A DNA stretch of 62,777 nt, counting the filler. It is 12 parts of 12 records of this genome, joined end to end, with 100 filler letters (N's around TTAATTAATTAA, not from the genome) between each part and the next. Parts side by side here need not be neighbours in the genome. Positions count along the whole stretch, not along the records: positions 12,969 to 19,265 come from SRR7504441_17303; 11 more parts are not named here. One strand, given 5' to 3'. The notes below the pieces were generated by a model, which had not been told where the DNA came from, did no database searches, and was given only the letters and a program-made list of their open reading frames with translations. Made by a program: the position numbers and the translations under genes. Shown in pieces: positions 1,240-36,345 of this stretch. Each line of letters starts with the position of its first letter. Within the stretch, counting starts at the first letter, position 1.

Positions 1240-3557
1240 TCAATACTTGCAAGAGCCCTGCACATTGTACGGGCCCGTGCCCCCTGCGCAGCCTTGCCAA
1301 TACGGCATGAGAGTTTCCCGGAAGAACGATGCGTCCCCGATTTGCAGCGCAAAGCGATCCGAGATAGATCTCTGTAGCTGGGGGTCGATCCCAGTCAAGT
1401 TGTTCCACACGGCCTGCAGCCTGCCGGCCGCCTCCACACCAGCCTGCGAGGCGGCGTCAAAGTGCTCGATGATGGTCAGGCCGCTTGTCAGCTTGTGCGA
1501 CCAAGGCAAGTTGTGAAAGAACAGCAAAAGCTCCTCCGGGCAGGTGGCAGGATCGTCAAACCGCTCCGTCCACTCAGCAGCGTACTGCGTCGAGTAACCC
1601 GAGCCTCGCGAGCTCCTGTCGCACCCAACCCCACGGATGGAGTAGTTGGCGTAGCCCCAGTTCGAGCACGGGTCCATCCAGTAGTGGCTCCCGTGCAGCT
1701 CGAGATACGCCGGCCAGCGGTCCTTGGGGCACCCGCCTTCACCGCAGCTGGTGTTGTGGTGGCAGTAAGGTTTTGCGCTGTCGTACGCCGGCTGGCCCAT
1801 GCACGGTCCACCGCCGTACCCGCCCGAGACCACGAATCCTATCCCTAGTGGGCTGGTATAGTTCTCATACACAGGCCACGTGTCCTCCATCAGACCCACC
1901 AGAGCGTCAAGAGAGCGCGAAACCTGCTGCAGCCCAAAGCTCTGCCGAGCCCAATCCCGGTGAATTGCCTTGCTGCTGGCCGTCGGCTCCCAGGCCAGTC
2001 TCCCGAACCCGTAAGTGTTGCTCTGGGCCAGAACGGAGCCGGTCCAGTTGTTGTTATCTCCCAAGTTGGATACGGCAGCAAGGCCGGTCAGCGAGCTGTT
2101 TCTGGCCTTGAACGGTCCCCGGCGGGCCAGCAGGTTGGCAACGGTCGAGTTGGGGCCCAGGCGGAGCGTGTCAAACCCGAGGTAGTGCACCCACTGAGAG
2201 GTGAGCCCCACAGCGTGCACCGCCTGCCCAGTGTACTCCTGGGCAGCCTGCACCTCCATCATCACGTTCGTGTTGGGCAGCAGCCCAGTCAGCAGCGGCG
2301 AGATCGGCTCCCGGACCTGGAAATCTGTACATGCGCTCAGCTAAAGATATAGCAGGCAGCTAAATAGCTATGTGCAGCACCGATCGGGCCGTTCTTGATC
2401 TGCACCACAACATTCGAATCAAACTGTCCATCGAGCGACCCAAACGTATCTGCCGCCTGTCGAGCCCTGTCTTCGGCCCCGATCTTGCCATTTCCATACA
2501 CAAACGCCCGCCACATCACAATCCGTGCTGGTCCGAGCGCCCTGGCGAGCAGATTCGCTCCATCGGCCTCGGTGCGATTGTAGCCCAGAGGCCCCTGGTT
2601 GCCCTCAGCGTCGGCCTTGACGAGGAAGCCTCCGAACCGCGGCATGAGCGAGACGATGGCCGAGGCCTTGCGCTCCCACCACTGGATCACCTTCGGGTCG
2701 AGCGGGTCCACCCCGCTGAGCTGTGGCAGGCCCATGTGTGGGCTCATCGGGGCTGCGTAGCAGGGCGTGATGAAGAGCTTGATGCCCCAGCGGGATAATA
2801 TCGGGTACACAGTGTCCGCCAGTCGCTTGAGCGCGCCAGGCTCGAGCAAAGCCGTGTTGGCCCCGCAAGCGTTCACGTTGTTGATGACCAGCCCGTTTAA
2901 TCCCACAGACTTGAGCAGCCTAGCCATATCGTTCACTCGCTCGGCCGCCGCAGCGGTCCAATTAGACAGTGCCATCGGCCAGAGCAGCGAGCGCCCGGCG
3001 TAGCCCCGCTCGATGCTCCCGTCCAGGTTGTCCCACAGATCCCAGATGCGCAGCCCCAGCGCTGGCACCTGAGTCTCGTTCCAGCCTGGCGACGGCAGCG
3101 GCTCGGACCGGGTCAGCCGCTGGAGCAGGTCGAAGGTCCCGTGCAGCAGACCACTAGCAGTGGCTGCTCGAGCCTGGAGGCGGCCCCTCGGAGCCCACGG
3201 CCCGAGCGGTCCGGTCCGAGCCACCTGGTACCCTTCGCTGCCCAGACTGGACTGCAGCGCGGGCTCCACGGAGAGCACGGCGCAGCCTTGGGACGGGCAG
3301 GCCGAACAGACCGCCACCGGGACTGGAGCGGCCAGGATGGCGGCCAGCCCGCGGGCCAGCTCGGCCCGGGCGCTCTCTAGCAGCTCGGCCTCGAACGATT
3401 GGCTGCTCGGCCTGATCTGGACGCAGCCGCCGAACGCGTCGCGGTAGTCCAGGAGCAGGGCGTCCGGCGCCGGTCTGTACCGAAGCCACGCCTCGTAGCC
3501 GTCCTCGGTCTGCACCGCAGAGCACAGCAAAAGCCAGCACAGGCCACTCCGCTTCAT
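1240..3557 (-). CDS. aguA: Secreted alpha-glucuronidase, glycoside hydrolase family 67; 2 exons (intron 2325-2380)
   Basis: Signal-peptide-like start MKRSGLCWLLLCSAVQT. GH67 motifs EDGYEAWLRY, WDNLDGSIERGYAGRS, NNVNA, FLVKADAEG, WRAFVY, QEYTGQ, YGFGRLAW, YENYT. Removing a 56-nt GT-AG intron joins ORFs 2337..3557 and 1240..2265 and restores QIKNGPID-FQVREP. Confidence 0.93.
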
Positions 3558-12868: not shown

Positions 12869-12968
12869 NNNNNNNNNNNNNNNNNNNNNNNNNNNNNNNN
12901 NNNNNNNNNNNNTTAATTAATTAANNNNNNNNNNNNNNNNNNNNNNNNNNNNNNNNNNNNNNNNNNNN
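12869..12968. other. Artificial contig spacer (N44-TTAATTAATTAA-N44); identical spacers at 19266, 23039, 27468, 32184, 36046, 39455, 43253, 50087, 56322, 59593
   Basis: Eleven identical 100-nt blocks with stops in all six frames; genes are truncated at them. Confidence 0.99.
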
Positions 12969-13229
12969 CCCTGAGCGGTGCCGGCAGAGCTTAGAGGTCT
13001 GGACCAGTACCTGTGAGAAGATCGACGCGTGCAAGGAGCAGGCGGGCGCCGGGGGACGGCGCGGGGGGTGAGGGCGGGTCAGATCATGCTGCTGGAGGCG
13101 GAGCTGGAGAGCAAGTCGGGGAAGAAACCCGGGGATGAGATCGATAACAATGTGCTCGAATCCGGCGAGACGGCAAAGCAGTACATAGATCGGATCCGCC
13201 GGGAGGAAAAGGCGGTGGCCGGTTTCTAA
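12969..13229 (+). CDS. 3' end of a hypothetical protein, with GC-AG intron 13042-13082
   Basis: ...EKIDACKEQ|IMLLEAELESK... joins in frame when the 41-nt GC-AG intron is removed; the 5' part is lost at the spacer. Confidence 0.5.
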
Positions 13230-13341
13230 AATTAGCACTGAGCCGTTAATGGCAGCAACTGCAAGAGGAGATCCTGGCGCTGCCGTTAACTTCTATCCAG
13301 TTCGGGGCACAGGAGCCGCGGTCGGATTTAATTAATGTTTA

Positions 13342-16108
13342 ATGCGATCTGCCCGGGAGCAGATTGCCGTTACGAGAGCGGCGGGTGAGGTGGCGCGAGG
13401 GGCAGCTGCTGCAGGCCTTCCGGGTGCGGCACAGCCCCGGTGGCTGGTGACTCAAGGCCAGGCCCATTCAGCTGTGAACCAGGAACTAGGTGGGTTATTT
13501 AAGCCCTGCGCCGGCCGAGCCAGGGCAGCTGCGGGGGCCGGTGAGGAGATCATCCCGCTGACCGAAATCGGGAGGGACGGCGAGCCGGCTGACTCCGACT
13601 CCGAGGAGCAATCCAAGCATCTGGTGGAGGGAGAGCACGACGATGGCGGCGCGAGCGGACTGCCGGCTCTGGACAGCTCGGCCCTCCGGATGGTGCGGGT
13701 TGCGGTTGGCTGGCCGATGCCGTTATGGCAGGTGGATCAGAAGCTCGGGCCGTGCGTCGGCTCTTCGTTTCTGTTGTATCTGGAGGTTTTAGTGACGAAT
13801 GACGGAATTGAGCCTGTTTCAGGTGCTCAAAGTAAACGCTGTGCTGCTCTGCTGCTGGTGCCGGCTGGTGCCGGGTGGGAGGCCGATCCCCGGGGCAGGC
13901 TGGTTGCGCTGATTATTCCCTTCATTCTGTCACCACCTGACACGTTCAAGTGGTCCGAAATCACGGGCAACGGGCTGTACGGGGGAGAAGACCCAGGTGC
14001 TTCCTCTCGGACTAACGGACATTTAACGGACATTCAGGGCTGGATAATTCCTTCTTCTGCACTGGGGCGTACCCGACTGTGATAGATTTGTGGGGGTTTG
14101 CGTATCGAGTGGACGTGCCTGCCATCGCTTGCGAGCCAGTGACAATGTGTGAGTAGGTGGCTTACGCAATCACTTGGATCTTGTGCTTCGGACTTCAGCT
14201 GCTGGTTGCCTCCTAAAAGCCCGGGGCTTGACAGGCCAGCCAGGTCCTCGCTTGGCAGCTGAACGACGCAATCTGCGTCGCCGGGTGCGTTTCATCTCAT
14301 ATTTAATCCCCAACCGCCACGTCTGATGAGACCCTGGGCCAGCCGTGCTGACAGCGACTTTGCGGGGTCCGACGCCGGGAACACGCCGTTTCTGCACTCT
14401 GTGATGTGCTCGCTTTATTTCGGGATTCAGGACACTACAGTGGCGCGGCAGTACGCTCGTGACGTGACCGGCTGCTCGTCGGGCTGAGCTGAAATCTGAA
14501 GCAGGTGCTGGCTATATTAAAGCAAAAGGTGGAGTTCAAGCTGTTGATCGGGGTGTGAGCCGGCCAGTCTCTGCCTGACCTGCCGGCCGCAGGAGTTTCC
14601 TGTCGAGGATGAGGAGGAAGAAGAGCTAATTAATATGAGCTCCGTGGAGCTGATAGGCCGCGCGTTGGGGATTATTCTCTACATCGGTGACAGTGCCGGC
14701 GGCGGCAGCTCAGCCGGAGCAGGGCTCTTCCCGCTGACTTTCGCGGCGATGTATTATCTTTACGAGAACTACGACTCTTTCGGGTTCGCGTACGCTGTTC
14801 CGGCGATGGTAGCCCTGATGAGGTGGCAAGTACCGCCAAACGAGTTGAGCCCTCACAGGACGTTTGTGCCGTTGTTTGGAGTGCCGCTGTTGCTGAAACT
14901 CGAGACACGGGGCGGCAAGAACCTGTTCTGGCAGACCTTAGCTCGGAGTTTTGTGCTCAAGATCTTTATGGTCCGTTGCACGCCGTTGAATGCGGTTCGA
15001 ACGGAAGGCTAGGCGTATTCGATGCTTTACGTGTTTATCATAACTTCGCACGCGGAGAAGATCGGCGTGTGTCGGCAGATCTACATCGGCCAGGGCTTCT
15101 GGCAGCAGCAAGTTGTCGACCTGGCGCTTCTGGTGCCGACTGTTGGGATTAGGCCGACAGGTTGAGTGTAGGTGCTGCTCGATATCGTCGGCTGCTGGTT
15201 CAAGTGGCGGCAGGAGGTTCGGCCACAGTTCGACCAGGCGAGCTTAACACCTTCCTCATAAGGGAATAACCAGTCGGTCACAGGAGGCGCTGGCCGAGCG
15301 TGTGTCGGAGCTGGTCTACAGGTTAACACCTTCCTTATAAGGGAATAACTCGCTGGTAACAGGCAAGGCTATATCTGGACTGCGACCATGTACTCCCCGA
15401 TGCAGGTGCTTGCGCTATGGATTGAACCGTTGCTTGACCGGCCGTTCCAGCCTGCCTTGGGCATCTTGGGGACTGTACTGCTCTACTATCAACACACAGT
15501 CACTGTGGCCATCTCGCAGACACCGCCTCTTGTCGGCTGGAACTACCAGCAGGCACCGCCCTGCCCGTCCCAGTCCGACCGGTGCAGGTCAAGAGAATGT
15601 TCATCAGTGCCATGCTCGCTGTTCAAGTGTTCTCGCTGGTCGCGCCTGCCCGCCCAGCGTGCCTGACACCGGTTAAGGTGCCGGCGTGGACCTTTATTCA
15701 TGTAAAACCGGCCTGCGGACCTTACAACGGTTACCAGTCGCCTTACGACGCAATCAAGTGACTTAAAAATCCCGTTAGATCTCAGCTGGCGGTTCACAGG
15801 TCTCAAATCATGTGGGACTCGCCACACTGGCTCTTCACCGCTTTTTACTGGCTCTCGGGTGCCTCTCCTTGGCAGAGCCCTCCTCTGACTGGAGTGCAGT
15901 GCCCTCGATTGTATGGGCTCTGCTCACGGTGGTAGTGGTGGCCGCTGTCTCGTTCTCTGTCTGCAACGGACTTGTAAGCGGGGCTCGTGCCGGCTGAGAG
16001 GGCGCGCAGGTCAAGACACAGCTGGAGGAGAATTACGAGCAGCTCGACGATAATCATTTCGATAAGTCGCAGCTGCTCAACCGAGCCGAGCTCCGATTGT
16101 GGTACTGA
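13342..16108 (+). CDS. Transmembrane channel-like (TMC) family protein, multi-exon; start uncertain
   Basis: Spliced segments match TMC hallmarks: VDQKLGPCVGSSFLLYL, YIGQGFWQQQVVD, FDQEALAERVSELVYRQGYIWTATMYSP, PACGPYNG, C-terminal EQL..DKSQLL. Many ~40-nt introns. Confidence 0.72.
15238..15283 (+). mobile_element. Introner-like intron copy 1 (GC-AG, 46 nt)
   Basis: gcgagcTTAACACCTTCCTCATAAGGGAATAAccagtcggtcacag; removal restores FDQ|EAL; shares its core with copies 2 and 3. Confidence 0.6.
15322..15362 (+). mobile_element. Introner-like intron copy 2 (GT-AG, 41 nt)
   Basis: gTTAACACCTTCCTTATAAGGGAATAActcgctggtaacag; removal restores LVYR|QGY. Confidence 0.6.
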
Positions 16109-16392
16109 TACTAACTGATACTATAGATCGATAATAGATCGAGATCGATCTAAGAGCCTACACGTAAATAATCATTATACATACAGATATTTCATATAGG
16201 TCTACTACGTGTGCGTGCACGCCAATTGATCATAGATGTAGGTTTAATTATATCAAACGGTATTATAACTAGGAGTGGTGGCTTCTCGATAGCGCTTCAG
16301 AATGAAGCACACTTTAGCGATTCGATCCTATGGACACGACATCAACAGCTTGCAGCCCTGACTACAACATAACAAATACTCCCGCCGATTTC

Positions 16393-18990
16393 TCAGATGT
16401 TGGCGCTCGAGCCCTTGAATCCGTCAATATTGATCGGCTGCTGCGTCGCAGACTCCTCGGACCGGTCAGTGTGCTTATACTTAGCTAGCCGGCGCTGTGG
16501 CAGCTTCATCGCATCTCGTCTGAACGGGTCGCCCAGCTCGCGGGTGCACATGATCTCCACCACACAGGTCTTCTGCTCCTCCATCTGCAGCCTCAGCGCC
16601 TGCGCCCGCCGGTCACACCATCGCTGACCGTAGCCCGAACCTCCTTCAGGGCCGGGCCCACGTCCTCCTTGCGCTCCACCACAATCCCTACCAACCGTTC
16701 AGAGAGCAAGCCACTGCCAAGCCAAACCTTCAGCCATCATGCTCTTAGCCACAGCAGCGAACGACGGATTCTCGAGCTGAGTGCCGATGTAACGATCACC
16801 GAACCAGAGCACCTATCCCAACGCTCGAGGTGGGCACAGCCGCAGCGCAGACCTGATTCTTCTTCTCGGCGCCCCATTGGCCGTTATTGAACACAACAGC
16901 GGTGGTCGGGATCTGCTCGCGGACGCAGGTGAGCACTTCGTTCAGGCTCATCCCCCAGGCTCCGTCTCCCACGTATGCCACGCACGGCCGGTCGGGACGA
17001 GCCACCTGACAGGGCTTAACTCAGCACTGATGATAGACTGGGAGAGTGCACCTTGGCGCCCATTGCAGCAGGGAAGGCGTAGCCGCAGTTGCCGTAAGTC
17101 ATGGCTGCACAAGTCAAGTTAACCCATTATTCCCTTATGCGGAAGGTGCGTTAAGCTACCGGCCAGGAAGGAGCGCGGCTCGTCAAACTCCAGGTACCCA
17201 TTGGAGATCGAGCAAGAGTTGCCTAAACCACCCCCTCACACACACCCAGCGCCACTGCCGCGTACCAATGTCAGTCGCCACTACAGCGTCGCTCGGCATG
17301 GCCTCCCGCAGCGCCGCCAGCGCCTGCACCCGCGTTGGCTTTGTATCGGTTGAGAGCAGTTACCTCGCGTGGCCGAACATTACCCATCAGGCTCTCAGTA
17401 GGGACGCCCTCCGGCGCTTCGGCCGTCATCTGCTCCAACTCCTGCACAGCTATCAGCAGGCCCGAGCCCCGGCCGGGTACCTTCTTCCAGCGAGCCTTGT
17501 GCTCGTGCACCGCCGCCAGCCGCTGCTCCGAATTCTCCAAGCAGGCGATCCTCTGAGCTCGGTTCGCGAGTCTCGTACGAAGCGCGTCAGCTGCCAGCCG
17601 CGCGTCGGCTAGAATCCCAACGGCCGGGGTCTTGGTCAGCCCGATCCGCCGGTGGTCGATCTCCACTTGCACCTAAAAAGCTCTCAGGGCTCGTATTGCA
17701 GGTCGAGGGACCAATTTAGCACTCGAAGGCCAGTAGTCCATTCCATACTGCGGGTTGGTTCCAAACGGCGACATCCGGGTGCCCAGTGCCAGCACCTGGC
17801 CCAGTAGGTCGGCCAGCCGGCCCGCCGCCCGCGGGACACCACGTCGGCCTCGGAGATCTGGCGCATCGCTGCCTTGGAGCCGAGATACCCCAGGGGACCC
17901 ATCGCTAGCTCGTGGCTTGCCGGGAAGGCGTCGTTGTGCAGGTAGGTGGTGCAAACCTTCACCCGCCGGCTCAGCCCGTTCCGACCGAGAAACAACGGAC
18001 CGGTGAAGAGAGCAGCTCCGCGAGCGCCTTAGCAGACTCCATTGCGTTGCCCATCACAACCCCACCGCCCACAAGCAGCACAGGGTTACGCGCGTTGGCC
18101 AGCAGCTCGGCCGCCGCGTCCAGATCGGCCTCGGCCCCCGCCGATCGGCTGGGCAGCTGCGGCCGGCTCAGGGCTGGCCAGGTGCTGTGGCACATTCTCA
18201 GGCGGGATCACGAAATCATTTTCTCCGTAGAAGAAATCCCGGGGGATATTCAGCTGGGTAGGGCCGCACTCGGTCTTGGCGTAGTCAAAGCATCTGGCCC
18301 GGGTGATCTAACGGAATCTAACGGCCCCACACCGTGCGGTGATCTCCGCCATCCTTTGAGGGTTGTTCACGTGGCCCTGGAATTTGGTGCAGTCGGAGAA
18401 CATCGGCAGTTGATCCGCCTCTTGAAACCCGCCGAGCCCTTTTGTCAGGGTGCCAGCCTCCGGCGTGATGGCCACAACCGGCGAGTGCGCCCAGAAGGCG
18501 GCGTACATCCCGGTCACGAAGTTGGATATCCCGGGGCCTGCCGACCATACAGTCACCCATCATGGTTTTAACACTCTCGGCACCGTTCTGAGCCACGCAG
18601 ACGCCGTGCTTGTCCGAAACCCGGGCGTACCCGTCCGCCATGTGCACCGCGTTCTGCTCGTGCTGCCCGCCAGGCTCCGGCCCGCCCTCCTGCCAGCCGG
18701 ACCTGAACAGAGATGAAGCGTATCCCTGCGGCCGGGAAGAGGTCAAGTGCGTCCATGTAGGCCGAGCCGACGATCCCGAAGCAGTCACTCACCCGGCGCG
18801 ACCGGAGCGTCTCGACGAACGCCTCAGAGTTGGTCATGAGACCCTGCTCCACCTCGTCCGTGGCCGGGTGGGCGGCCGCCGCGACGGCGGGCTGGGCGGC
18901 GGGGGTGCGCGTGGCCGGCTTGGGGGCCTGGGTGGCTTTGGGGCGGCGGCAGGTCAGCCGGGCTGCGCAGAGGGCGGAGCGGCTGAGCAT
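16393..18990 (-). CDS. xsc: Sulfoacetaldehyde acetyltransferase (ThDP-dependent), 16 exons, N-terminal mitochondrial-type presequence
   Basis: Spliced protein: MTNSEAFVETL..FGIVGSAYMDALDLFPAAGIRF..HEQNAVHMADGYARVS..AQNGPGISNFVT..AAFWAHSPVVAITPE..GLGGFQE..YLHNDAFPASH..GPLGYLGSKAAM..TDIGN..PRSFLAAMTYGNCGYAFP..GDGAWGMS..FNNGQWGAEKKNQ..ELGDPFRRDA. These are Xsc-specific rather than generic acetolactate synthase motifs. All 15 introns are GT-AG (e.g. 18663-18702, 18538-18583, 18294-18332, 17105-17159). Confidence 0.93.
17105..17159 (-). mobile_element. Introner-like intron copy 3 (GT-AG, 55 nt) inside xsc
   Basis: gtagcTTAACgcACCTTCCGCATAAGGGAATAAtgggttaacttgacttgtgcag; removal restores SFLA|AMTYGNCG. 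Confidence 0.55.
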
Positions 18991-19153
18991 GGTGCGGCTG
19001 GGTTGTGTCCCGTACGGCCGCGAACAGGCAGTACGGAGCTCCTCGACGTGTGAAGAGGCGCCACAGAACGCCACGTGTCGTCCGTTAGTGTTAACCTCAT
19101 AGTAATTTCATAGGAATCGCCGCGTGGCGCTGACCCACCTCAGCACTGTGGCA

Positions 19154-19265
19154 ATGCGCGTGCTGGTGCTCAACGCCGGCAGCTCCAGCCTCAAGTCCGT
19201 TGGCCGGGCGGCAGGCCGGGACCGGCCGGGCAGGTGGGCGCTGTTCGGCTCGGGCGGCCTCCGGC
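19154..19265 (+). CDS. ackA: Acetate kinase family protein, 5' fragment truncated by contig end; intron 19195-19233
   Basis: MRVLVLNAGSSSLK|WALF after removing a 39-nt GT-AG intron; this is the acetate/propionate kinase N-terminal signature. Only ~24 codons are visible. Confidence 0.8.
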
Positions 19266-19705
19266 NNNNNNNNNNNNNNNNNNNNNNNNNNNNNNNNNNN
19301 NNNNNNNNNTTAATTAATTAANNNNNNNNNNNNNNNNNNNNNNNNNNNNNNNNNNNNNNNNNNNNGGCCCTCCTCGCTGCCCAGTGCCGGTGAGCTCACC
19401 CCCATATCCACCGGGGCATTACCCGACCCGTCCTGCCCGCCTCGCGCACCCTCCCCTTGCCTCCTCATGATCACCGTGTCTCGTCAGTACGGTTTGCGCC
19501 TCGCCGGCTGACCGCCTGTCGCTCCTGGCCGGTGGGCTCTTGGCCTGGCTGTACCCTCCATGCTTGGCTGTCACCCAAGCGGGGACCGGTCAGCCCCCCG
19601 CTCGGCGGCTGGCACTCCTCCGATCTGGGTCATCCCGCATGCCAAGTCATTGCCGATCGCTCCCCCGATCTGCTTGCACGTTGATCGTATGCCCTGCAGG
19701 ACAAG

Positions 19706-20879: not shown

Positions 20880-22820
20880 CTAGTGTCGCGTAATGGCGCG
20901 TTCATCGTAGTCCACTCCCTTGTGATTGAAATAGATGCACACGGCCGAGATATTGTCATCCGAGCCCAGATCCCAAGCCCGCATGCACAGCGCTTTGGCT
21001 CCAAAGTCCACGTGCCGCGCCGTCCGTGCCACATCCCTCGCCGCCTCCTCATTCGACACAGTGTCCCACACCCCGTCTGTGGCCAGCAGCAGGAAGTCGT
21101 CTTGAGGGCTCACACGCAACAAGCTAATCTCAGGCTCGGCCACCAGCCCGTGCTCTTTCATCGCCTGGTCCCCGATCGCTCGCGTGACTTGAATCTTCCC
21201 ACCCACGCGCGGCTTGCCATCCCGACCCTTAGTAATCGATCCGCCTGCCGCCAGCACTCGGTCCCTCTCGCTCTCCAGAGAGGCCGTGTGGTCCGTCGTC
21301 AACTGTCTGCCCTCACCTGCACTGTTCACCACAGCCCTGCAGTCGCCCGCATTGGCCAACAGCACAACCTGGCCTACCACCAGCACCACCAGCGCCGTGG
21401 CGCCACTCGAGTCGCCCAGCCCCGCGAATCCCCTATCCACCGACACGAACGCCCGCTGCAACGCCCCCGAAGCATCACCGGGTGTAAGTGCGAGCTCTGC
21501 CAGCACAGCACCAGGCATCTTCCGGTTAGCAAAATCCGCTGCGAGCTGGCCTCCGTGCCCATCAAACACGCCGAACAGGTGCACGCCAGCAGCGTGCGGG
21601 GCCGCGAGCTCGTGGCAGACAAAGCTCCTGTCTTCCATCTTGTCTGAACCCCTCCGGCCAGGCATCGCTTCGTGCCCACCAGCACAGCTGAACCCAGCGG
21701 TCTGATTGGCTTGGACCGACGCAAATACGGCCGACCAGTCAACATCGGCCGCGCTGCCCTCGCGGACCACTAACTCGACAGGTGCTGTCGCCGGTTCGGC
21801 AGAAGCCGGCTCAGGTGCCGCTGGGCTCAGCTCGGCAAGCTCTGACGGGGCAGACATGGGATATGCCCGGGCCGCCTGCTCCAGCTGGGAGCACACCACG
21901 GCCATGGTGGGCCGACTGGCTGGGTCGGCGGTCCAGCAGCTGTCCACTAGCTGGTTGAGTGCAGCCAGGCTATAGTCCGCTGACGGAGACCCTAAATCGC
22001 AGATAGCTTCGGGCGTGAGCTGGTGTGGTCGAAGCTGCTTTGTACAGACAGCCTGCATCAGCGCCTGCTGCGAGTACGAGGCCTCAATCACTGTGTGGAA
22101 CTGAAGGTCGTCGTCGCACCGCTTGACATCGGAGTACGGCACGGTGCCAGTGAGAAGTTCGTTGAGCGACACCCCGAACGAGTAGACATCTGAGGCCACA
22201 GTGAACGGCTCCTTCTTGAGCAGCTCGGGGGCCATGTACACCATTGTGCCCACCATGAACTTTTTAAAATACCCGCCCGACGGCCCGGTGGCCACCGAGG
22301 GCTCAAACCCACGCTGCAAGCTCTCGATGCTCTCCGCGTTCTCAAGGTCGCATAGCACCGCGCGCCAATCGGCCCCGACCACGCAGTTGCCCGGCTTGAT
22401 GTCCTTGCTCACGTGCCCCAGCCGGCTGTGCAGGAACTCGATCCCCTGGGCGAAGTCCAATCCAAGCGACAGCCGCAGTCCGACAGGCAGCTCGCTGGCC
22501 CCCGAATGGTGCAGCAGATGGAACAGGCTGCCGCGGGTGTACTCCGGCATCACGATCGCGTAGTTGGGCGCGCTGTTGATCACCCCGATGATCGGGACCA
22601 CCCGCGCGAACTGGGCGGCCTGCTGGAGGAGCCCGACCTCCTTCCAGAATCGGCCCAGCCGTTCCCGGCCGGTGATCTTGGCGCGCTTGACCACGACCGG
22701 TTGGCCGTCTGGGAGGGCCGAGAAGTAGACGTGGCTGTTCTTGGTGTTCTGGATCGTGCGGGCCACCGGCAGGCTCGCCGGGGCGTGCACACACACCTCG
22801 AGATCCACGGGCAATGCCAT
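20880..22820 (-). CDS. Protein kinase (TKL-like) fused to PP2C phosphatase
   Basis: Kinase: VVKR, DIKPGN, VGTMVYMAPELL, SDVYSFG, CWTADPASRP. PP2C: MEDR, FGVFDGHGG, ANAGDCRA, TRAIGD, ATDGVWD, GSDDNIS. Intronless 646 aa. Confidence 0.9.
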   Translation of the reverse strand: MALPVDLEVCVHAPASLPVARTIQNTKNSHVYFSALPDGQPVVVKRAKITGRERLGRFWKEVGLLQQAAQFARVVPIIGVINSAPNYAIVMPEYTRGSLFHLLHHSGASELPVGLRLSLGLDFAQGIEFLHSRLGHVSKDIKPGNCVVGADWRAVLCDLENAESIESLQRGFEPSVATGPSGGYFKKFMVGTMVYMAPELLKKEPFTVASDVYSFGVSLNELLTGTVPYSDVKRCDDDLQFHTVIEASYSQQALMQAVCTKQLRPHQLTPEAICDLGSPSADYSLAALNQLVDSCWTADPASRPTMAVVCSQLEQAARAYPMSAPSELAELSPAAPEPASAEPATAPVELVVREGSAADVDWSAVFASVQANQTAGFSCAGGHEAMPGRRGSDKMEDRSFVCHELAAPHAAGVHLFGVFDGHGGQLAADFANRKMPGAVLAELALTPGDASGALQRAFVSVDRGFAGLGDSSGATALVVLVVGQVVLLANAGDCRAVVNSAGEGRQLTTDHTASLESERDRVLAAGGSITKGRDGKPRVGGKIQVTRAIGDQAMKEHGLVAEPEISLLRVSPQDDFLLLATDGVWDTVSNEEAARDVARTARHVDFGAKALCMRAWDLGSDDNISAVCIYFNHKGVDYDERAITRH

Positions 22821-23138
22821 CAGTGCTCGAGCGAGATGAGTCGTTGTCAGCAGACCAATCGGAAGGAGTTGGAGCCTTTGACCGGCAGGCGGGAGCGCCT
22901 ATGTTGCAACTCGGGTACGAGTAGACAACAGGACTTCTCCTATTCTAGACTCGTGAAACGATTGCACTTGTGTCAGGTCTTAAATGAGTTACTGATGCGT
23001 TCAGTCTACGTTCAGTCTAACTAGTACATGACATGTAANNNNNNNNNNNNNNNNNNNNNNNNNNNNNNNNNNNNNNNNNNNNTTAATTAATTAANNNNNN
23101 NNNNNNNNNNNNNNNNNNNNNNNNNNNNNNNNNNNNNN

Positions 23139-34526: not shown

Positions 34527-35945
34527 CTACTCGCTGAACACGAGCTGCTCGAGCTGGTCCTCGATGCACTCGGCCCGCTCGAGCTGCTCGAGCTGCAGGA
34601 TGGCTGCCCCCAGCGCCTCCACCGCATCCATGTTGGTTACACCCGCCGAGCTGCAGAGCAACAAAAACTTCTGGGTGAGCTCGGTGTCGGTCGGGGGCGG
34701 CTGGTCCTTGAAGCTGTCCCACTCGACTTGTTTGAGCCCCGAGCTGAGCGTCGGGCCGCCTGCCAAGTGAGCCAGCACCTCCGCGCAGTTGTCGTGCGTC
34801 TTGGTCTCGCCGAGTTTCTGTTGCTCAAACCGCGGGTGGGTAGAGGCTTTGGTCCGGGAGAGCAGCTGGGCCAGCGGCTGGTTGTGCCGGTACTGGGCCT
34901 CGCTCACATCGACCACTCCGCTCACCATGACCGAGGCCACCCCGTAGTTGAGGTTGTACTGCGCCTGGTCGCTGTTCTGCGGCTGCTGCTGGTACAGCGA
35001 GAGCGCCTCCGGGAAGGTGAGCACCTCCAACCGCTCGACCTCATCTACCGTCCGGCCGGCCTCGCCCAGCTGCCGCCGCAGCTCGATTCCGCCGTGGATC
35101 GCAGCCTGAGCCCAGTAGCAGCCCGGATGTCGCTTGTAGACGTGATACACACAGATCTGCCAACTCGTGCCCAGATCAGCCCATACCGTCCGGCCATCCG
35201 CGTCGGCCGTGAGCGTGCTGGCCCCGGCGGTGAACCCGGATGAGGCGAGCATCGCCCCGCTGACCCCGCTCCAGGCCCCAAACCCGCTCCCATCCTTCAC
35301 CATCGCCGGATTGCTCATCACAGTCAGCACGTCCCCGCGCGGGCTATGGTACTCGGCGATCGCCAGCGCGTGCAGCGTCTGCTCCTCGGACAGACCGAAC
35401 CGGCGGGCGCACATGGCGGCCACCCCGACAGTGTTCCAGGCCCCGGAGGTGTAGTAAGGCCCGCGGTCGTGATCACTTGTGGCCGCCAGAGTCTCGCCAG
35501 CCCGGTAGGCCACCTCGTAGCCCACCAGCAGCAGCGTGATGAGCTCCCGCCCGGTCAGCCCCTCCCCGTACCCCGGTCTCTCAGCCAGATGATCCAACCC
35601 GCCAATCTCCGCCAGCGGCCTAGCCAGCAGCAGCGCGGCCGGCACCAGGGCGGCCCCGGCGTGCCCCTTGGCGTTGTGTCCGGAGTCGTGCTGGTCGAGC
35701 TGGTCCACCGTCAGCGCGTTGGCCATCGCCGCCCCCACGGCCGACACTTGGCCACCCCCGCACCAGAGCCGGCCGCCGGTGCCTCCGTACATTGCCTGGG
35801 CGAACCGGCGGATGATCTTCGAGCCAGGGAGCGGGAGCGCGGCCACCGCCACCCCCAGTGTGTCGAGCAGCGCCCGCTTGGCCTCGTGCGCCGCCGCGGC
35901 CGGGACCTGATCGAACTCGAGCTCGTGAATCCACCTCACCGCCAT
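34527..35945 (-). CDS. MmgE/PrpD family protein (2-methylcitrate dehydratase fold), substrate unknown; start may extend upstream
   Basis: AKRALLDTLGVA, AAMANA..LDQHDS..KGHAG, LVGYEVA, YTSGAW, ALAIAE, MVKDGSGFG, YKRHPGCYWAQ, AQYNLNY, KFL. No introns in 472 codons. Confidence 0.85.
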   Translation of the reverse strand: MAVRWIHELEFDQVPAAAAHEAKRALLDTLGVAVAALPLPGSKIIRRFAQAMYGGTGGRLWCGGGQVSAVGAAMANALTVDQLDQHDSGHNAKGHAGAALVPAALLLARPLAEIGGLDHLAERPGYGEGLTGRELITLLLVGYEVAYRAGETLAATSDHDRGPYYTSGAWNTVGVAAMCARRFGLSEEQTLHALAIAEYHSPRGDVLTVMSNPAMVKDGSGFGAWSGVSGAMLASSGFTAGASTLTADADGRTVWADLGTSWQICVYHVYKRHPGCYWAQAAIHGGIELRRQLGEAGRTVDEVERLEVLTFPEALSLYQQQPQNSDQAQYNLNYGVASVMVSGVVDVSEAQYRHNQPLAQLLSRTKASTHPRFEQQKLGETKTHDNCAEVLAHLAGGPTLSSGLKQVEWDSFKDQPPPTDTELTQKFLLLCSSAGVTNMDAVEALGAAILQLEQLERAECIEDQLEQLVFSE

Positions 35946-36345
35946 CCGCAGGCGTTTTTGCCGGTTCGGAGCAGCTGCAGGCAGAGAGTTGGGACAGCCG
36001 ACAGCAAGGATGCCTTGCCCCCATGGCCGGCGGCGCAGCCAATGCNNNNNNNNNNNNNNNNNNNNNNNNNNNNNNNNNNNNNNNNNNNNTTAATTAATTA
36101 ANNNNNNNNNNNNNNNNNNNNNNNNNNNNNNNNNNNNNNNNNNNNGTGTCCTCTCGACTCAAAAAAAAAAAAGAGTACTCGTATACTCGTATTTTAAATG
36201 TTGGCCACAAGCACACTTCATCCTTACCTTGCAACCTTACCAATCATCGTGGAACTCCGGGGTTACTCGTAATACTCGACATTACTCGTAACGTCGTACT
36301 TAATAACGGAATAAGGACGCACAGATTGTCAATTAATTAATTGGT

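Follow-up and report, generated by a model that had tools for sequence, protein, structure and literature searches.

Xsc (sulfoacetaldehyde acetyltransferase) is a thiamine-diphosphate (ThDP) enzyme that uses phosphate to cleave sulfoacetaldehyde, yielding acetyl phosphate and sulfite; from acetyl phosphate and ADP, acetate kinase (AckA, ACK) forms acetate and ATP. The feeding of AckA by Xsc is documented in the bacterium Taurinivorans muris (PMC10507020, available part), and in the papers searched the breakdown of sulfonates is assigned to bacteria (e.g. in the available part of PMC11293860). The known partners of eukaryotic ACK are PTA and XFP, that of Entamoeba being unknown, and the ACK-bearing eukaryotes listed in the available part of the same source include no animals (PMC9983610). 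In Chlamydomonas, PAT2 and ACK1 are contiguous, so that the gene of a eukaryotic acetyl-phosphate producer lies beside that of a consumer (PMC3660698, available part). In the literature searched, Xsc was dealt with as a gene of eukaryotes only in an uncommented row in a transcript-count table of an Amazon plume metatranscriptome from 2016 (PMC5012681, available part); no functional, evolutionary or localisation study of eukaryotic Xsc was found in the literature searched, subscription-only papers and supplements being outside the search. Here, a contig belonging to a 62,777-base stretch of DNA (the window) is described, in which a spliced nuclear Xsc gene of a marine protist lies 163 nt from the divergent start of what is very probably an acetate-kinase-family gene. 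The pair gives the known Xsc–AckA module a new form, which is eukaryotic, divergent and intron-bearing; its kinase half is known from 24 codons only, and its Xsc belongs to a broader eukaryotic lineage that has so far been little described.

The window is composed of 12 small contigs and does not represent one locus. Both genes are located on the contig at 12969-19265 (6,297 bp), whose end is position 19265; the analysis draws on this contig together with public collections. The features of the gene pair are as follows.

16393..18990, minus strand: nuclear Xsc gene, 16 exons, 654 codons plus stop
18838..18990, minus strand: Xsc N-terminal extension, about 51 codons; family profiles match from residue 51-52
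18991..19153: divergent intergenic region, 163 nt between the ATG at 18990 (minus) and the ATG at 19154 (plus)
19154..19194, plus strand: predicted ackA exon 1, 41 nt (ATG, 13 2/3 codons), translating to MRVLVLNAGSSSLK
19195..19233, plus strand: putative ackA intron, 39 nt, GT–AG, phase 2
19234..19265, plus strand: predicted start of ackA exon 2, 32 nt, reading WALFGSGGLR after the split codon and cut by the contig end

The Xsc model was built under the guidance of P0001, a EukProt transcript-derived protein of 656 aa that is the closest database protein, and its alignment with P0001 is free of gaps across the mature part. The start codon (ATG 18990-18988, minus) is the first in-frame ATG past an upstream stop, and the stop codon is the TGA at 16395-16393 (minus). 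A first-pass annotation, made from the letters alone, had proposed a complete spliced Xsc beginning at 18990 on the minus strand; the 16-exon model, running to the TGA at 16393, agrees with it to the coordinate. The exons are arranged as follows.

18990-18703, 18662-18584, 18537-18333, 18293-18194, 18156-18001, 17956-17840, minus strand: Xsc exons 1-6
17795-17712, 17672-17481, 17441-17364, 17323-17266, 17222-17160, 17104-17052, minus strand: Xsc exons 7-12
17005-16853, 16812-16728, 16687-16641, 16599-16393, minus strand: Xsc exons 13-16

All 15 introns are of the GT–AG type and measure 37–55 nt, mostly about 40 nt. Exact skipping of nine of them (nos. 5 and 8–15) was found in marine RNA contigs from two oligo-dT (poly-A) runs belonging to two studies; introns 1–4 and 6 lie outside this RNA contig evidence. 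At the nine joined sites, the CT..AC of the plus strand corresponds to GT..AG on the gene strand. One RNA contig of 671 nt joins seven Xsc exons, with 641 nt aligned and 12 mismatches, and the RNA pieces listed with Xsc splice joints are 96–99% identical. In what is probably a DNA run, introns 7, 9 and 10 are retained, with small indels within an intron. The Xsc gene is real, complete, spliced and expressed in the sea. The earlier view that the tiny introns are of host type, and that the contig is not bacterial contamination, is borne out because poly-A RNA skips the predicted introns, which also confirms the tiny-intron architecture.

The assignment of the gene to the Xsc family was examined against profiles, single proteins and trees. 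For each of the ten Xsc exon pieces, the best NCBIfam match was to the Xsc models NF005713 / TIGR03457, and the acetolactate synthase (ALS) models, where they scored at all, gave values 2–3 times lower. The NCBIfam scores for the window Xsc come from separate exon pieces rather than the joined protein; summed over these pieces with six small exons left out, NF005713 reached about 540 bits (curated cut-offs 676.4 for TIGR03457 and 620). P0001, which is 81.5% identical to the window Xsc, scores 843 and 878 bits on the two Xsc models, passing the Xsc equivalog cut-off (843 > 676.4) and failing that of ALS (348 < 538). Together with four other eukaryote-type homologues, it spans 798–865 bits on the Xsc equivalog model, against 676.4, and 326–364 bits on the ALS model, against 538. 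A custom Xsc hidden Markov model (HMM) of length 584, built from 83 bacterial Xsc proteins, gave the spliced window protein 917.9 bits over positions 6–582; on the same model P0001 scored 919.4, E. coli IlvI 263.7 and PoxB 191.4. The window protein is 61–63% identical to two bacterial Xsc proteins named as such by NCBI and 29% identical to E. coli IlvI. ThDP enzymes are marked by a GDG-X24-27-NN motif and a cofactor-activating glutamate, and the cofactor motifs of the window Xsc are intact, with GDG-X24-NN at residues 504–532 and HEQ at residue 97.

In the phylogeny, a branch supported at 100 sets IlvI and PoxB apart from the Xsc rows, 177 in all, and the window protein is inside the Xsc set, in keeping with the family first assigned to it. 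Xsc and the acetolactate synthase / POX-ALS superfamily have a three-domain ThDP fold in common (families PF02776, PF00205 and PF02775), but ALS profiles score roughly 2.5–3.5 times lower. An ALS identity was rejected given the Xsc-best exon pieces, the HMM scores, the tree and the failed ALS cut-off of the homologue. As far as sequence comparison can tell, the window gene is a genuine member of the Xsc family, not an acetolactate synthase.

A search for homologues retrieved a RefSeq protein of the jellyfish Rhopilema esculentum annotated as 'sulfoacetaldehyde acetyltransferase-like', an MMETSP transcript, a EukProt transcript and many 2-kb single-gene contigs. Animals are not known to degrade taurine, and an animal Xsc would be unexpected. 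ENA contigs reaching 1.8 Mb carry fourteen exon-sized Xsc fragments. Eukaryote-type Xsc is also the single gene of roughly twelve mRNA-like contigs from metagenomes, and two of these contigs finish in A-runs; the eukaryote-type set includes P0038, the P0033 cluster, L002–L012, L023, L031 and L046. A metagenome scan with P0001 yielded bacterial and mRNA-like contigs and no intron-bearing eukaryotic genomic contig. One of the mRNA-like Xsc contigs opens with GGCTCAAG (L012:1-25), which would be the 3′-terminal part of the spliced leader of dinoflagellates; it hints at Xsc expression in dinoflagellates.

Two trees were computed, a FastTree tree of 179 rows and a quick IQ-TREE tree of 56 rows, both rooted on IlvI and PoxB. 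In both, all the sampled bacterial Xsc lie on one side of a branch and 27–28 eukaryote-type rows lie opposite (support 98 and 99); the label 'eukaryote-type' is independent of the trees for four rows only (the window, P0001, P0064 and P0038), which are spread across the group. The window Xsc is sister to P0001 with a support of 100. Judging by these trees and the database records, eukaryotic Xsc is a separate, widespread and old clade that is already present in databases and is not peculiar to the window protist.

The eukaryote-type proteins are distinguished at both ends. N-terminal extensions of 31–79 aa, typically basic, are present on 23 of the 27 eukaryote-type Xsc and on a 24th (L046) that was missed by the pattern of the script; the remaining three look 5′-truncated. 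In 81 bacterial Xsc, the median extension is seven residues. The first 52 residues of the window Xsc contain seven K/R and three D/E, all three acidic residues being past residue 44. Considering this composition and the fact that the jellyfish has no plastid, the extension of the window Xsc is probably a mitochondrial presequence. Residues 1–17 of P0001 resemble a translated library adapter, presumably a Nextera end; the true start of P0001 would probably be the double M at residues 18–19, leaving a presequence of about 31 aa. At the other end, a C-terminal tail of 28–44 aa with an ES-x-T-G/Q-Q-P motif was found in all scorable eukaryote-type rows; the tail of the 81 bacterial proteins has 15–17 residues, and the motif is absent from them.

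On the plus strand, an open reading frame (ORF) begins at the ATG at 19154, on the same contig and 163 nt from the Xsc ATG, exactly where the first-pass annotation had placed an acetate kinase start. The part present amounts to 24 codons (73 coding nt) before the contig end at 19265; the other roughly 380 residues of an acetate kinase, with the second ASKHA domain and catalytic residues, would have to lie beyond that end. Acetate_kinase (PF00871) was the sole Pfam family matched by exon 1 up to E 10, at profile positions 2–14. A tblastn search of the whole window with E. coli AckA gave exon 1 as the best match (11 of 12 residues identical, E 0.8) and no further ackA-like exon anywhere in the window, the other 11 contigs included. 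The N-terminal phosphate-binding motif of acetate/propionate kinases, (hydrophobic x3)-N-x-G-S-S-S/T-x-K, was derived from E. coli AckA and ten metagenomic xsc-linked AckA proteins. When all six frames of the window were translated, a single match to it was obtained, at residues 4–14 of this ORF, against an analytic expectation of 1.9e-6. After the intron, W-A-L-F fits the F-A-V/L-F/Y of bacterial AckA in three of four residues. A stop codon lies 16 codons upstream of the ATG, with no earlier ATG, and the protein starts at the catalytic motif; there is therefore no presequence and no room for an upstream ackA exon.

The putative ackA intron, at 39 nt, falls inside the size range of the Xsc introns, and it opens with the octamer GTCCGTTG, as does Xsc intron 5. 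This octamer occurs nine times in the window, against 2.1 copies expected, a number reached in none of 100 shuffles; the copies are at 14971, 15964, 17993, 19195, 25996, 29059, 31271, 31752 and 40863. At least two of the copies are intron 5′ ends, so that the genome of the window may favour GTCCGTTG as an extended donor site. With its motif and a putative intron of the same size class as those of Xsc, the ORF is very probably the start of an acetate-kinase-family gene; the earlier call stands in this graded form, made as it is on 24 codons only.

The 163-nt intergenic region must hold both 5′ untranslated regions and any shared promoter. Owing to the geometry of the gene pair, both transcription starts would lie within the 163 nt, or overlap. 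The following elements are located there.

19068-19081: CACGTG palindrome, candidate element
19069-19080 / 19118-19129: imperfect inverted repeat, candidate element
19092-19113: 11-nt tandem, candidate element
19082..19087, plus strand: CCGTTA hexamer, between the two genes

The hexamer had been singled out in the first-pass annotation as a motif between the genes. It is present at that position, and it is no evidence of a promoter element because copies are abundant and occur in exons and introns as well. The window contains 24 copies, against 14.3 expected (24 were reached in one of 100 shuffles), and 11 of the 24 are in contig 12969-19265 (13243-19087), several of them inside exons or introns. 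A tandem pair of CCGTTA was observed within Xsc intron 3 (18309-18324), and a cluster of copies at 13243-14029.

An ackA gene after xsc is commonplace in bacteria: among 68 bacterial-type metagenome loci carrying xsc, of which 47 extend for 1 kb or more past the gene, it is seen in ten, about as frequently as pta. All ten pairs are co-directional, with ackA downstream, and none is divergent. The window genes are divergent and each has introns, which places them outside the bacterial xsc–ackA operons: the window pair would work like the bacterial xsc–ackA module yet is no member of it.

According to the proposed mechanism, taurine, isethionate or sulfoacetate would be converted upstream of Xsc into sulfoacetaldehyde, which Xsc would cleave into acetyl phosphate and sulfite; acetate kinase would then convert the acetyl phosphate into acetate and ATP. 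The divergent pair would be transcribed from the shared short control region of 163 nt, and Xsc would be a third supplier of acetyl phosphate for eukaryotic acetate kinase, beside Pta and Xfp. The enzyme activities, the rest of ackA, the co-regulation, the compartment and the upstream substrate are what we infer here. That the Xsc/ackA pair makes up the lower half of a route for breaking down C2 sulfonates and is functionally coupled appears somewhat more probable than the contrary; it is placed no higher because of the compartment argument and the occurrence of Xsc in an animal lineage not listed with ACK, both set out below. A chance neighbourhood is unlikely, since two rare genes share one labile intermediate and lie 163 nt apart; by our own estimate, where a genome has thousands of genes, two such rare ones would end up side by side by chance with a probability of about 1e-3 or less. 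A broader reading is put forward tentatively, at somewhat less than even confidence: an old, eukaryote-wide, mitochondrion-targeted Xsc would desulfonate sulfoacetaldehyde arising from taurine, isethionate or sulfoacetate and, in the window protist, would be wired through the 163-nt region to acetate kinase as a third source of acetyl phosphate for substrate-level ATP synthesis in eukaryotes. The lineages named for this eukaryote-wide Xsc are protists, dinoflagellate-like plankton and at least one cnidarian.

Several observations weigh against the coupled route. The kinase is known from 24 residues only, and the PF00871 match is sub-threshold (11.2 bits, E 0.14, against a gathering score of 22 bits), a threshold that is out of reach because just 24 residues precede the contig end. 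A phmmer search of the PDB with the ackA fragment returned two chance matches and no kinase, and a homologue search with the 53-aa ackA read-through gave 149 word-sharing candidates, none at E ≤ 10. No gene that would feed sulfonates into the route was found on the contig by Pfam among the ORF pieces of 12969-16105. Bacterial xsc genes linked to ackA are scattered through the bacterial clade without any of them being the sister of eukaryotic Xsc; for this reason, and since none of the ten bacterial pairs is divergent, the protist pair is neither a preserved nor a recently imported operon. Xsc carries a presequence-like extension and the ackA start has none, so the two products may occupy different compartments. 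Xsc also does not need AckA, because the jellyfish has Xsc and the ACK-bearing eukaryotes listed in the available part of PMC9983610 lack animals.

These last points are accommodated by a reading in which the two genes are neighbours and not partners. Xsc would be mitochondrial, its acetyl phosphate passing to Pta, acylphosphatase or acetylation, the cytosolic kinase would be fed by Pta or Xfp, and the adjacency would be due to chance or be a leftover. The presequence-like extension of 23 of the 27 eukaryote-type Xsc and of a 24th, absent from the ackA start, speaks for it, as do the presence of Xsc in a jellyfish lineage outside the listed ACK-bearing eukaryotes and the fact that PTA and XFP are the partners known for ACK in eukaryotes (PMC9983610, available part). 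However, the targeting is deduced from composition alone, the xsc–ackA pairing recurs as a bacterial operon, and it is very unlikely that rare genes with a common labile intermediate would become adjacent by chance; we regard this alternative as possible, though rather unlikely.

A second alternative concerns the kinase half itself, which could be a relic or pseudogene, or could have been brought beside xsc by a misassembly at the contig end. Only 73 coding nt precede that end, and no second ackA exon occurs in the window. Between 0.06 and 0.10 of the words of the window were found in eight sequencing runs, four of which were mapped; in these four, no read or contig covers 18973-19265, which leaves the xsc/ackA join without independent support. 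Against a relic or a misjoin, the reading frame runs unbroken from the ATG, the putative intron is canonical at both ends and begins with the octamer (GTCCGTTG) that also opens an Xsc intron, and the sequence 18990-19265 bears no mark of a junction, so that this explanation is considered improbable.

It is more improbable still that the eukaryotic Xsc-clade protein acts on another substrate or works biosynthetically, the C-terminal tail reflecting a changed function. A well-supported branch (98 and 99) does separate the eukaryote-type rows from every bacterial Xsc sampled, the 28–44-aa tail with its ES-x-T-G/Q-Q-P motif is absent from the 81 bacterial proteins, and no assay of a eukaryotic Xsc was found in the literature searched; set against this are the 61–63% identity to named bacterial Xsc, the relatives that score far above the equivalog cut-off and the intact cofactor motifs. 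Bacterial contamination of a eukaryotic assembly, which the typically bacterial character of Xsc and ackA and the short, unplaced contig might suggest, has a negligible probability and is refuted by 15 GT–AG introns of spliceosomal type, of which poly-A RNA confirms the splicing of nine, by the nearest relatives being eukaryotic transcripts and by the position of the protein outside the bacterial clade.

The rest of the contig and the other contigs provide the genomic setting. The region 12969-16108 has long open frames, one of which ends at 16108 and is convergent with Xsc. Pfam gave no match at all for nine of the ten ORF pieces of 12969-16105; the piece at 15779-15994 had three sub-threshold matches at chance level, the best being DUF3309 (E 0.023, 15.3 against 22.3 bits). 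For a hydrophobic ORF of 125 aa at 14635-15009 (ATG 14635), neither of two very large protein libraries yielded a homologue. The linkers join unrelated contigs, and any feature spanning one of them is consequently an artefact. The linkers and the features of other contigs are as follows.

11 sites in the window: artificial linker, 100 nt, consisting of 44 N, TTAATTAATTAA and 44 N
12869-12968, 19266-19365 and nine more: sites of the artificial linker, separating unrelated contigs
2340-3557, minus strand: GH67 alpha-glucuronidase middle domain; long, apparently intron-poor ORF
20883-22898, minus strand: protein kinase–PP2C fusion; long, apparently intron-poor ORF
34530-36089, minus strand: PrpD/MmgE protein; long, apparently intron-poor ORF
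57385-59283, plus strand: TPR-CHAT protein; long, apparently intron-poor ORF
59644-61233, minus strand: RRM-MraW methyltransferase; long, apparently intron-poor ORF

Since the other contigs carry long intron-poor ORFs, the intron density clearly differs between genes of the organism.

In the sea, carbon and sulfur flow to a major extent by way of taurine, isethionate and related sulfonates. Since planktonic eukaryotes have a nuclear Xsc that is spliced and expressed, they may account for part of the sulfonate flux, and 'Xsc' counts in poly-A metatranscriptomes reflect a real eukaryotic enzyme. The ackA start beside Xsc provides a concrete, testable pathway. The pair suggests that some eukaryotes, and not bacteria alone, break down taurine-type sulfonates and gain ATP. 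If this is true, the cleavage of the carbon–sulfur bond of sulfonates is not solely a bacterial trait, and eukaryotic acetate kinase, whose source of acetyl phosphate is unknown in some protists according to the available part of PMC9983610, would acquire a new partner.

Compared with the bacterial Xsc–AckA system of T. muris, the window locus has the same two enzyme families with the chemistry that they imply, and the genes are physically adjacent (PMC10507020, available part). It differs from the bacterial xsc–ackA operons in being nuclear, intron-rich and divergent, and from bacterial Xsc in a putative organelle-type presequence and in the eukaryote-specific C-terminal tail. With the eukaryote-type Xsc clade, the window protein has both the N-terminal extension and the C-terminal tail in common, but an ackA start has been seen beside Xsc only in the window, the other records being transcripts or automatic annotations. 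The pathways in which eukaryotic ACK works with PTA (Chlamydomonas, Phytophthora) or XFP (fungi) resemble the proposed route in that the kinase needs a partner forming acetyl phosphate (PMC9983610, available part); they differ from it in that the candidate partner here is Xsc, which is absent from the partners named in the introduction of that paper.

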